Virus record (IMG/VR): IMGVR_UViG_2778261515_000018
Coordinates: 1-28,775 of that record
Origin: a virus
Taxonomy: Duplodnaviria > Heunggongvirae > Uroviricota > Caudoviricetes
DNA length: 28,775 nt
Direction: 5' to 3' (one strand)
Below, piece by piece: positions 2,185 through 5,011 of the stretch (within the stretch, counting starts at the first letter, position 1; each line of letters starts with the position of its first letter). The notes below the pieces were generated by a model. It was not told where the DNA came from. It worked only from the letters and a program-made list of their open reading frames with translations, and did not search any database. The translations under genes and the position numbers were made by a program.

Positions 2185-2481
2185 TCAGTCATTACTGATA
2201 GCGCCATAGCGTGAGCGGTAATTACGCAGGCGCGGATCGATATATTCAGGGAAGTGGGTATATGTGGCTTTGCGGAATGGTCGGATTGATGTCTGGTAAA
2301 TTCGCTCGCGTTCTTCTTTCTCTGCAAGCCATATACAATGGCGAAATTCCTTTTCCTCTTTCGTTTCCTGCGGTAGCGACATTATCCGATCGTAGTTTTT
2401 TCTGAATTTATCCAGCACCTCCGACACGGAATTGCCGGAACAGCGGCGCGCGTCGTCCGCACCATACAGAGGCGCTGGCAT
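2185..2481 (-). CDS. Hypothetical protein (98 aa); size and position reminiscent of P22 Abc2 but not verifiable here
   Basis: Track ORF; AAGGA upstream of ATG; lies downstream of erf and the ssb-like gene in the leftward operon. Confidence 0.5.
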
Positions 2482-2504: not shown

Positions 2505-2888
2505 TTAGAAGGGAATTGAATCGTCGTATTCAGGATGATTTTGATGATTGCTACTTTGCTGCTGTTGGCTGTTTCCTGAAGTTGCAAATCCAATCTTTGC
2601 ATTCAGTAATTCAAGAGTGATTGATTGACCATTTTGCCCCTGATAAACATCAACCCTGATGTTTTCTCCGGTAATTTCAACAATGCCACCTTCAACAAGA
2701 ACACTACGGTAGTAATCCGCTTGCGCTCCCGGCTTGGCAAATACAACGGCGCTGTAGTTTGTCCATTCTTTCTTTTTTGTCTGGCGATCGTAATACTGAA
2801 CGCCAGCACGGATGTTGAATCCGATATTTTCCCCGGCCTGAAACTCTCTTGCGGGTTTGTTTAGTCTTACAGTAATCGAATGTGCCAT
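2505..2888 (-). CDS. Short SSB-like OB-fold protein with C-terminal acidic tail (127 aa)
   Basis: Start ATG overlaps erf stop (TAATG); AGGAG RBS. Gly/Gln-rich linker (SGNSQQQQSSNHQNH) then C-terminal EYDDSIPF, the hallmark SSB tail (DDDIPF-like); core resembles SSB strands (WTNYSAVVFAKPG...IVEITGENIRVDVYQGQNGQ). Confidence 0.55.
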   Translation of the reverse strand: MAHSITVRLNKPAREFQAGENIGFNIRAGVQYYDRQTKKKEWTNYSAVVFAKPGAQADYYRSVLVEGGIVEITGENIRVDVYQGQNGQSITLELLNAKIGFATSGNSQQQQSSNHQNHPEYDDSIPF

Positions 2889-3493
2889 TAAGCAGCCGCT
2901 CCTTCTAATTCGTCTCGTCTGATGTTGTAAACGTCCTGCGCTTTGTGCTGCTCCGGTGTGCCTTCGAGCATCTTCCACGCTTTGGCGAACGCCTGTTTAA
3001 GCTCTTCTACGGTGTTTTTCTGCAATGCTGCGTCAGTGAATGCTTTTAGAACCTGCTCAGGTGTATGTGATGGCTTTGATTGCTTTGCTGCTGCGTTCTG
3101 CTGATGTTTATGCTCGTCGGTATCTGCATCTTTCGCATCATCAATGCCGAACAAACCATTGAGGCAATACTTGCGTGCATAAGAGCTTGTAGCTCCCGTA
3201 ACTTGTGCAGAATCCATTCCTTTCTTGCTTTCTTCCTCTCGTGCAAGAGCGGTTGCCGTATGACTGTTTTCACCATCGGTAATAGTTGCCGTGGCTTTCA
3301 CGTAATACCGATCACCAATCAACACAACTTCATCGCTGATTGATAAAAACAGGCCATTCAGTAACGGCTTAACGCCTTCAAGAATGTCTTCGCAGCTTCT
3401 GTATTTATATTTACCGAATGAGTTGTACTGATTCTTTGGCGCGTTCAGATTCTCCTGAATAGCTGCCAGTCTTGCGTAAAATTCTTTGCTCAT
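2888..3493 (-). CDS. erf: Erf single-strand annealing recombinase (essential recombination function)
   Basis: Translation from the internal ATG (MSKEFYARLAAIQENLNAPKNQYNSFGKYKYRSCEDILEGVKPLL...) matches the Erf family as I recall P22 Erf. Track ORF is extended upstream from a TTG. Confidence 0.85.
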   Translation of the reverse strand: MSKEFYARLAAIQENLNAPKNQYNSFGKYKYRSCEDILEGVKPLLNGLFLSISDEVVLIGDRYYVKATATITDGENSHTATALAREEESKKGMDSAQVTGATSSYARKYCLNGLFGIDDAKDADTDEHKHQQNAAAKQSKPSHTPEQVLKAFTDAALQKNTVEELKQAFAKAWKMLEGTPEQHKAQDVYNIRRDELEGAAA

Positions 3494-3503
3494 ATGATTG
3501 TTC

Positions 3504-3674
3504 TCAGAATGGACACGGCCCAAGGAAATAACGCTGATTTAATACTTCAGTCTTTGCCGCATTTAAAAATACGCGAACACCTTCACGATCTCCCTTCTGG
3601 CGATACATTAACGCCTGCTGCGTGTACATGCGTCTCTGTAACTTGCTCTCCTTCACTGTGGTTGCAAGTGACAT
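3504..3674 (-). CDS. Hypothetical small protein (56 aa) immediately upstream of erf
   Basis: ATG at 3674 preceded by AAGGAG with 6-nt spacer; stop 10 nt before erf start. Overlaps the next ORF by about 90 nt in another frame. Confidence 0.4.
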   Translation of the reverse strand: MSLATTVKESKLQRRMYTQQALMYRQKGDREGVRVFLNAAKTEVLNQRYFLGPCPF

Positions 3675-3753
3675 GAATATCTCCTTCGTTACCGATTAAT
3701 TCTTTCATCTGACGAATGAATTCTTCGTCTGACCAGTTGTCTGTAAAACTCAT
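3583..3753 (-). CDS. Hypothetical small protein (56 aa), start coupled to kil-like stop
   Basis: ATG overlaps the stop of the kil-like ORF (ATGA). C-terminal part is low complexity and overlaps the 3504..3674 ORF, so one of the two may be non-coding over the shared stretch. Confidence 0.3.
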   Translation of the reverse strand: MSFTDNWSDEEFIRQMKELIGNEGDIHVTCNHSEGEQVTETHVHAAGVNVSPEGRS

Positions 3754-3902
3754 TTCCTGCGATACCACGGATGGTTGATAGCTGATTTCATCTCTTTATT
3801 TGCTTCAAGCCACATTTTGGAATCACCAATAAATCTGGCTATTACTGCTTTATTTTGTGCAGCGCGAAGCATCTGGTGATTAATGGCTATTTCATTGCGC
3901 AT
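3750..3902 (-). CDS. kil: Kil-like small protein (50 aa), possible host division inhibitor
   Basis: Hand-translated MRNEIAINHQMLRAAQNKAVIARFIGDSKMWLEANKEMKSAINHPWYRRK; GAGG RBS; directly downstream of cIII as in lambda. The IARFIGD motif resembles lambda Kil as I recall it (memory-based). Confidence 0.45.
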   Translation of the reverse strand: MRNEIAINHQMLRAAQNKAVIARFIGDSKMWLEANKEMKSAINHPWYRRK

Positions 3903-4042: not shown

Positions 4043-5011
4043 TTAGTAGGTTATTTTTGTTGCGAATACTTCGCCTTTTACGATGGCTGTTATGATATTT
4101 TTAGCAACATCTTCTGATGCGCCAACCTTGATAAGGTCAGCAAGTATTTTGTTATTTACTTCTTTCCGGTGAGCTTTATCCTTTGCTCTACGCTCTTCTT
4201 CTTCCTTGATTCTTTTTTCTTCTGCTATTCTGGCTTGCTCTTTTGCTTCAGCCTCGCGCCGGATTCGTTCAGCCTCCTCCTGTGCTTTTCGGCGTTCTGC
4301 TTCAATTGCCGCCTGCTTTTCTCTTTCAGCTCGTTCTGCTGCCTCTTTTGTTTCGCGCTGTGCTCGTTGCTCGGCTTCAATGCGTTCACGCTCTGCACGT
4401 TCCGCTGCGGCCTTAGCTTCTGCTTCTCGCCTTGCTGCTGCTTCAATTTCGGCTTTTGCCTTTGCTTCGGCTTCAGCTCTGGCTTTCTCTTCAGCTTCTC
4501 TTTTTAAGCGTTCTTCATGCTCTCGCTTTTCCTGCTCCGCTTTGAGTCTTGCCTCTTCTCTTTGGCGGTCAAATTCGCGATCCATCAAAATCGCTATTTC
4601 ATGGTCAGACTCAATTTGCTTTGCGAGAGCTTCAGCTGCTGCCTTAGCTTCTTCTTCAGCTTTAATTCGCGCCTGTTCCTCTTCATAATCAGTAAGAGGC
4701 TGGCGTGCCTTGGCTTTCAGCTCATCAAGGCGATCGCGCACTGTCTTGCGGTTGGCATCAATTAGCTTTGGAATTTCCTTCAGTTCAGCAACAAGGTCTT
4801 TTCCAAGACCATCGAGATATGTTTTCGTCTGCGCAACTTTATACGCCAGAGAAGCGATCTCCTTTCTGCCCTTTGCCGTTGTGATATCAGGCACAAAGGA
4901 CATAACTTCACGTTCAACCTTTTGAAGGATTTCTTCAATCTGGTCGGCAGACTGAAATACAGTCATTGCATTTGCTTTTTCAATAACAACTAAATCTGTT
5001 ACTTCACTCAT
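4043..5011 (-). CDS. Coiled-coil protein with a long Glu/Arg/Lys/Ala-rich helical repeat region (322 aa)
   Basis: Track ORF trimmed to the ATG at 5011 (GGAGG 4-5 nt upstream). About 150 residues of EAEAKAKAEIEAAARREAEAKAAAERAERER-type repeats. Confidence 0.7.
   Translation of the reverse strand: MSEVTDLVVIEKANAMTVFQSADQIEEILQKVEREVMSFVPDITTAKGRKEIASLAYKVAQTKTYLDGLGKDLVAELKEIPKLIDANRKTVRDRLDELKAKARQPLTDYEEEQARIKAEEEAKAAAEALAKQIESDHEIAILMDREFDRQREEARLKAEQEKREHEERLKREAEEKARAEAEAKAKAEIEAAARREAEAKAAAERAERERIEAEQRAQRETKEAAERAEREKQAAIEAERRKAQEEAERIRREAEAKEQARIAEEKRIKEEEERRAKDKAHRKEVNNKILADLIKVGASEDVAKNIITAIVKGEVFATKITY

Follow-up and report, generated by a model that had tools for sequence, protein, structure and literature searches.

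The closest described counterpart of the protein considered here is HK97 gp40, which was named 'SSB-1b' in an analysis of 325 lambdoid genomes and has an AlphaFold 3 fold like that of bacterial SSB at a sequence identity of 15% or less (Genome Research 2025; PMC12315714). The same study defines a module type composed of anti-RecBCD, SSB and SAP genes, and its main text makes no mention of the C-terminal tip. The SSB of phage HK620 is a tetrameric ssDNA-binding protein (Hutinet et al., PMC5928155) whose last six residues (NDYPPF) are needed for loading Sak4 onto SSB-coated ssDNA, and also for a 10-fold stimulation of recombineering (PMC5928155). For erf genes of Firmicutes phages, erf-ssb is the commonest arrangement, accounting for about 80% (PMC8093625), and a current working model in recombineering has SSAPs depending on the C-terminal tail of SSB (PMC12054835). 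Here we place a 127-aa protein encoded directly downstream of a lambdoid erf gene among these systems.

Organisation of the erf/ssb module

The window (the whole stretch of DNA analysed, 28,775 nucleotides) is a lambdoid prophage or phage; 88% of its first 12 kb matches a prophage of E. coli UMNK88 at 99.7% identity. Its leftward early recombination module runs in the order kil, a pair of 56-aa ORFs that overlap each other at the position of arf, erf, the 127-aa gene, abc2, DUF2737 and Ead/Ea22 genes, and every gene of the erf/ssb module lies on the minus strand:

3750-3902, minus strand: kil
3583-3753, minus strand: small gene in the Arf position (56 aa; phrog_2123, 4e-40), its start overlapping the kil stop
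3504-3674, minus strand: second small ORF (56 aa), HkaM homologue (phrog_1723, 4.5e-34), overlapping the Arf-position gene and filling the gap before erf
2888-3493, minus strand: erf, single-strand annealing protein (201 aa; Pfam ERF, E = 2.4e-44; phrog_155, 3e-57)
2899-2904, minus strand: AAGGAG Shine-Dalgarno sequence of ssb, within the 3' end of erf
2886-2890, minus strand: TAATG, where the ssb start overlaps the erf stop (translational coupling), read from the sequence
2505-2888, minus strand: ssb, predicted divergent SSB of the SSB-1b/HK97 gp40 type (127 codons plus stop)
2185-2481, minus strand: abc2, anti-RecBCD gene (Pfam Anti-RecBCD_p2, 4.1e-61), 23 nt past the ssb stop

The Arf-position gene corresponds to HK75 gp33, which is equal to it in size and position, and to HK022 gp42, and its product shares the motif SDEEFI with P22 Arf. 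The product of the second small ORF is 33% identical to HK620 HkaM over 52 aa (E = 4e-9). Erf is 74% identical to P22 Erf overall, being near-identical over the first ~150 residues and divergent over the last 50. The module from kil through arf, erf and ssb to abc2 is ~98% identical to those of HK022, Sf101 and mEp213, and the segment comprising erf and the 127-aa gene has 97-99% nucleotide identity to HK022, Sf101, CUS-3, mEp213, mEp043, HK633, HK544, HK446 and several Stx phages. In these HK022/Sf101/CUS-3-type phages the 127-aa gene is almost always annotated as 'hypothetical protein'.

As the initial annotation had stated, a 127-aa ORF directly follows erf with overlapping stop and start codons, and its translation ends in EYDDSIPF. 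The erf TAA (2890-2888) and the ssb ATG (2888-2886) have one base in common (junction ...GCTTAATGGCA...), and the Shine-Dalgarno sequence (...TTAGAAGGAGCGGCTGCTTAATG) is followed by 10 nt to the ATG. The resulting protein reads MAHSITVRLNK...NHQNHPEYDDSIPF (also given as MAHSITVRLNK...SGNSQQQQSSNHQNHPEYDDSIPF). An automated ORF listing extends the frame to a GTG at 2978 (157 aa); we take the ATG at 2888 as the real start because all homologues begin with MAHS or MAHT. A start/stop overlap is also present in Edwardsiella phage GF-2 and in two further loci, from Serratia (L097) and Chimaeribacter (L098). The ORF is not a chance product, since it has 320 homologues at E<=1e-3 in a set of 5.8 billion proteins and its family, although small, forms 211 clusters at 50% identity in a set of 1.84 billion representatives.

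The copies in phages mEp043 and PhiR12_2 encode exactly the same amino acid sequence as the 127-aa gene, and HK97 gp40 shows 94.5% identity to it over 127/127 residues. HK97 gp40 is effectively the same gene in the same slot between a strand-annealing gene and abc2, and its assignment as an SSB rests on a predicted fold, evidence like that available for the 127-aa protein; nothing of substance differs between the two. The assignment of the 127-aa protein as an SSB is therefore already known in kind and, through HK97 gp40, in instance. What the present analysis adds beyond PMC12315714 is the sequence-profile link to SSB, the conservation of aromatic residues and the statistics of the C-terminal tip.

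Between the annealing gene and abc2, different lambdoid phages encode three unrelated proteins, namely P22 Abc1, HK620 HkaK (SSB-2) and the 127-aa protein. The operon around HkaK follows the same plan (small gene, SSAP, SSB, abc2), and HkaK carries an acidic x-P-F tip (NDYPPF). However, its partner is Sak4, a RecA-like ATPase, rather than Erf; it is reported to be non-homologous to bacterial SSB, and BLASTP of HkaK against the 127-aa protein gave E = 73 with no meaningful alignment. Abc1 lies in the identical slot between erf and abc2 and has a TAATG-type overlap with erf, but it is basic, lacks an acidic tip and is annotated as an anti-RecBCD accessory protein rather than an SSB; no BLASTP alignment with the 127-aa protein was obtained at E<=100. 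A relationship of the 127-aa protein to HK620 SSB or P22 Abc1 was accordingly rejected, as it has sequence similarity to neither. An SSB gene also directly follows erf in the Firmicutes modules and in HK75, but there the SSBs, including HK75 gp31 (SSB-1), are easily recognised canonical PF00436 members, unlike the 127-aa protein. HK75 gp31 carries the tip DFDDDIPF and is only 23% identical to the 127-aa protein (E = 0.017).

Placement within the SSB superfamily

Curated models do not recognise the 127-aa protein. A Pfam search returned no match at E<=0.01, nor at E<=10, and the NCBIfam model TIGR00621 scored 16.4 bits (E = 0.0084), below its cut-off of 53.95. None of the 120 homologues listed has a precomputed match to PF00436, and a profile built from 30 family members retrieved nothing relevant from PDB sequences. 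The protein does match PHROG_44 (SSB) with E = 1.8e-28; we give this little weight because PHROGs are remote-homology clusters and may contain the 127-aa family itself.

A link to SSB appeared once the family alignment was broadened to 70 diverse members (alignment A3). With this profile, hhalign aligned residues 22-93 to residues 31-101 of E. coli SSB (probability 96.5%, E = 1e-9), and hmmsearch of PDB retrieved Klebsiella SSB (2e-6), yeast mitochondrial Rim1 (2e-4, OB domain only) and E. coli SSB (4e-4). Among the 70 members, 11 match PF00436 at E<=0.1, the best at 2e-6, and the relatives from GF-2 and KW1E_UTAR do so at 0.003-0.008 across nearly the whole domain.

The predicted structure points in the same direction. 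The AlphaFold2 single-chain model has a mean pLDDT of 83.7, with 84 residues at >=90 and disorder at 107-119. Together with the tip, which is read from the sequence, it gives three parts of the protein:

2577-2888, minus strand: OB-fold domain, residues 1-104 (AlphaFold2 model)
2532-2576, minus strand: disordered linker, residues 105-119 (GNSQQQQSSNHQNHP), pLDDT <50 for 107-119
2508-2531, minus strand: residues 120-127, the C-terminal tip EYDDSIPF, similar to DFDDDIPF of E. coli SSB

In the model, the OB domain consists of strands 3-8, 14-18, 21-34 and 39-51, a helix at 55-63, and strands 69-74, 76-84, 87-95 and 98-103, and the barrel has its helix between strands 3 and 4, as in the five-stranded barrel of SSB-type folds. 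The 50 top Foldseek matches in PDB comprise only SSBs, bacterial or mitochondrial, and PriB (probability 1.00, E from 4e-5, TM 0.4-0.55), and among viral structures (BFVD) the functionally named matches are all SSB, three others being labelled only 'Uncharacterized protein'. Structural similarity to the T7 gp2.5/Enc34-type OB fold was also tested, and the 127-aa protein did not qualify for that type.

The presence of PriB structures among the fold matches, together with the failure to reach curated SSB models, might suggest an OB-fold adaptor, PriB-like or of another kind, that would not coat ssDNA in the manner of an SSB and whose C-terminal motif would be convergent. We regard this as highly improbable, since PriB has neither a disordered linker nor an acidic tip, the sequence profile leads to SSB and Rim1 rather than to PriB, and the functionally named structural neighbours in viruses are without exception SSBs. 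Profile and structure comparison together provide a confidently predicted OB fold and a profile link to SSB, and on these grounds we assign the 127-aa protein to the SSB superfamily, as a genuine branch of it that has diverged very far.

Like E. coli SSB (EcSSB), the protein has a predicted OB fold, carries aromatic residues where EcSSB has W40, W54, F60 and W88, and continues through a low-complexity linker, predicted to be disordered, to an acidic tip ending in IPF. It differs from bacterial SSB in falling below curated thresholds, in being only 9-18% identical to solved SSBs, in an N-Y insertion past the conserved W42, and in a linker of ~15 rather than ~55 residues that is not Gly-rich. 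The linker (SGNSQQQQSSNHQNHP) abounds in Gln, Ser and Asn and contains a single Gly, so its earlier description as Gly/Gln-rich does not hold. The body had likewise been described as shorter than that of bacterial SSB; this is true of the whole protein (127 versus 178 aa), but the OB bodies are nearly equal (~104 versus ~112 residues), and the difference in total length is mainly due to the shorter linker.

Conservation of the tip and of ssDNA-stacking aromatics

The N-terminal ~103 residues of the homologues align without gaps. The segment that follows the OB domain has a median length of 51 residues (range 6 to 108), with much Gln, Pro and Ala and no conservation of sequence; at 24 residues, the tail of the 127-aa protein is among the shortest in the family. 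The C-terminal ends nevertheless converge on an acidic x-P-F motif (FDDSIPF, FDDDIPF, WDDEPPF), and among 107 full-length homologues x-P-F/Y is the terminal motif of 84. In a count without selection over the 110 cluster representatives whose OB domain is complete, the tip is at the very end in 64 and within the last 25 residues in a further 11 (together ~70%), the latter having a one-residue overhang or an IPF-APxGL... extension after it. The tip is missing from the remaining 35, which include near-misses (FDDDILF, FDDDISF) and evident frameshifts as well as proteins with Q-rich ends such as NFQQPR. The C-terminal motif is thus retained among homologues, in agreement with the initial proposal, while the linker is free in both length and sequence, and a conserved tip on a hypervariable linker marks a working SSB C-terminus rather than a chance match. 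The IPF-APxGL extension also occurs on the canonical HK75 SSB. Separately, the HkaM-like small protein encoded just upstream of erf also ends in ...PF.

Residues equivalent to those on which ssDNA stacks in EcSSB are largely aromatic across the 70-member alignment. EcSSB W54 aligns to W42 or Y45, depending on the aligner, and both positions are aromatic in 70/70 members; F60 aligns to F50 (69/70) and W88 to Y82 (54/70, 77%). The position aligned to W40, Y32, is aromatic in 35/70, and the neighbouring Y33 in 57/70 (81%).

These observations bear on the two readings offered by the initial annotation, in which the protein was either a bona fide phage SSB partner for Erf or a mimic of the SSB tail. 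If it were a decoy, the tip would titrate or redirect host SSB-interacting proteins (ExoI, RecQ, RecJ, PriA, chi subunit) and the OB domain would serve mainly as an oligomerisation scaffold. EYDDSIPF is indeed very near to the host DFDDDIPF, the post-OB segment is unusually short (24 residues against the family median of 51), and the neighbouring abc2 encodes a hijacker of a host enzyme, so that manipulation of the host would fit the operon. However, family-wide conservation of the EcSSB-equivalent stacking aromatics is unexpected in a scaffold, and about a third of members lack the tip and yet keep the OB domain. The linkage to annealing proteins, either Erf or Sak4-like, across very different phages and hosts (see below) also speaks against a decoy, which we therefore judge to be unlikely. 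From sequence and predicted structure, the reading as an SSB partner for Erf is supported and is the one we favour over tail mimicry, chiefly because of the conserved aromatics.

Association with single-strand annealing proteins

The order ERF, SSB-1b, ABC2 is found in 80/80 IMG/VR loci, but these are near-identical and so provide no independent evidence of synteny. We therefore examined, one by one, 11 distant loci with 27-60% identity. ERF is directly upstream in 7 of the 11, often with a start/stop overlap:

ERF directly upstream: Edwardsiella phage GF-2; Vibrio phage 14E30.1; E. coli phage KW1E_UTAR; metagenomic contigs L009/L010 and L012; Serratia L097; Chimaeribacter L098
ERF four genes upstream: L011
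AAA_24 (Sak4-like) gene upstream, overlapping: Leminorella L006
No recognisable annealase: L008
Interrupted by an insertion sequence: L096

The coupling to Erf that had been noted at this locus thus extends to close relatives and to most of the distant loci. Since Erf is the partner in most distant loci and a Sak4-like protein in one, the family is an SSAP-associated SSB found mostly, but not only, with Erf. Two members without the tip (P0104 and P0117) still directly follow erf, which indicates that the tip is not obligatory for the pairing. We also considered the type of tip (IPF or PPF) as a marker of the partner and rejected it, as the PPF members from Serratia and Chimaeribacter follow Erf and an IPF member follows the Sak4-like gene. 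Alignment by eye showed no covariation between the C-terminal ~50 residues of Erf and the downstream gene; by the same approach, the Erf of the window is approximately as similar to the Vibrio Erf, which is paired with SSB-1b, as to P22 Erf, which is paired with Abc1.

An alternative is that the protein is a general replication SSB, acting for instance under a shortage of host SSB, and that its adjacency to erf reflects operon history only. Canonical SSBs work in replication, a host-like tip could contact the host replisome (chi, DnaG, PriA), and other phage SSB types are replication proteins (T7 gp2.5; bioRxiv 10.1101/2025.11.11.687766). Yet the gene is located in the leftward recombination module, away from the O/P-type replication genes of the rightward operon, and is translationally coupled to erf; the pairing with SSAPs recurs in unrelated genomes, and lambda and P22 manage replication with no SSB of their own (PMC12315714). 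A general replication role is consequently unlikely in our view.

Proposed role

We propose, with a probability of roughly 75%, that the 127-aa protein is a phage-encoded, strongly diverged member of the SSB superfamily (SSB-1b type) that probably coats ssDNA and whose tip hands the DNA to Erf and to host SSB partners. The ssDNA would be produced by replication or by RecBCD modified by Abc2, whose conversion of this enzyme into a resection machine is a role cited in PMC5928155. Co-produced with Erf through translational coupling, the phage SSB could coat this ssDNA by stacking on its conserved aromatic residues, and the exposed EYDDSIPF may recruit Erf and/or host proteins with an SSB-tip pocket to the coated DNA, after which Erf would anneal the strand to its complement. 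Such a coat-and-recruit mechanism has been demonstrated for the unrelated HK620 SSB with Sak4 and for host SSB with Red-beta and RecT; by analogy, HK620 SSB/Sak4 offers the best functional model for the 127-aa protein. Counting against an SSB role are the failure of all curated SSB models and the ~30% of family representatives that lack the tip.

A bolder and rather improbable possibility is a phage-private hand-off network, in which the host-like tip would be more than an SSB tail and SSB-1b with its minimal linker, and perhaps the HkaM-like protein too, would compete with host SSB for tip pockets, loading Erf and disarming host nucleases and helicases. If this were true, the replacement of the tip by Q-rich (...NFQQPR) or IPF-APxGL ends in approximately a third of members would make the tails exchangeable specificity cassettes.

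Erf and the 127-aa SSB-1b represent a further pair of an SSAP and its cognate SSB, a pairing that determines the portability of recombineering systems, and are a compact candidate pair for recombineering tools. No new question is opened by the locus. The family has already been described, albeit poorly annotated, and the value of the analysis lies mainly in annotation: Pfam and NCBIfam miss the 127-aa gene, and a profile made from the present family alignment would name it. Of 5426 complete E. coli genomes, 579 carry the gene, and RefSeq/PGAP labels its product 'hypothetical protein' in 10/10 records listed, where an 'ERF family protein' adjoins it.

Annealase partners and a mosaic junction inside erf

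The family of divergent phage SSBs to which the window protein belongs (SSB-1b, prototype HK97 gp40) is not tied exclusively to Erf. In a prophage of Leminorella grimontii (locus L006, 3138-4417), an AAA_24 (Sak4-like) gene takes the place of erf, and its stop is overlapped by the gene for an SSB-1b member with the tip DFDDDIPF. Members of a single SSB family thus work with two types of annealase that are unrelated to each other.

Comparison of the window Erf with that of P22 revealed near-identity over approximately the first 150 residues and sharp divergence over the last ~50, corresponding to the following segment:

2888-3040, minus strand: divergent C-terminal part of Erf (residues ~150-201), from comparison with P22 Erf

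This pattern places a mosaic junction inside erf, adjoining the swapped downstream gene, which encodes an SSB-1b protein in the window but Abc1 in P22. HK75 Erf is P22-like in its C-terminal ~55 residues, whereas its N-terminal part is different.

Variation and loss of the C-terminal tip

The canonical SSB of HK75 carries additional sequence beyond its acidic tip:

L099 5910-6416: HK75 gp31, canonical SSB

Here, a further 15 residues (APVTLPFPRHAIHAI) extend the protein past DFDDDIPF. The SSB-1b family appears unrelated to this protein, yet an extension of the same IPF-AP(V/I)GL... kind is found on some of its members (homologues P0127, P0152 and P0157), which suggests that C-terminal tail modules are swapped among different SSB bodies. 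In a subgroup of SSB-1b members with long linkers, all of them metagenomic (P0091, P0095, P0097, P0103, P0106-P0108, P0117 and P0118), the acidic x-P-F tip is replaced by Q-rich ends (for example ...NFQQPR or ...FPQHQG); the P0117 gene still lies directly after erf.

Several copies of the SSB-1b gene have lost the linker and tip through frameshift or truncation (phage HF4s, L001 3988-4383; homologues P0075, P0086, P0176, P0046 and P0054), the HF4s copy being annotated as a 94-aa 'ssb protein' and a separate 36-aa ORF. In mEp234, the match to the window protein is confined to the first 48 residues. Decay or recombination of this gene seems to be fairly frequent in prophages.

Genes upstream of erf

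Two predicted ORFs just upstream of the window erf lie in different frames and have 92 nt in common:

3504-3674, minus strand: HkaM-like ORF, 56 aa, strong PHROG family match
3583-3753, minus strand: ORF in the Arf position, 56 aa, strong PHROG family match

The product of the latter has the motif SDEEFI in common with P22 Arf, and its size and position agree with those of HK75 gp33, a protein that, according to a 2026 preprint, suffices to trigger P2 OLD. The former shares 33% identity (E=4e-9) with HkaM, a small protein of HK620. Both the HkaM-like product (LGPCPF) and HkaM (SELPF) end in ...PF, resembling an SSB tip.

Upstream of kil lies a further gene:

4043-5011, minus strand: coiled-coil protein, 322 aa

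Its product is a highly charged coiled coil with a high content of Glu, Ala, Lys and Arg, and matches phrog_1376 and phrog_21365, families that carry no functional annotation. The HF4s counterpart bears the annotation 'antitoxin protein / similar to phi80 Agt'.
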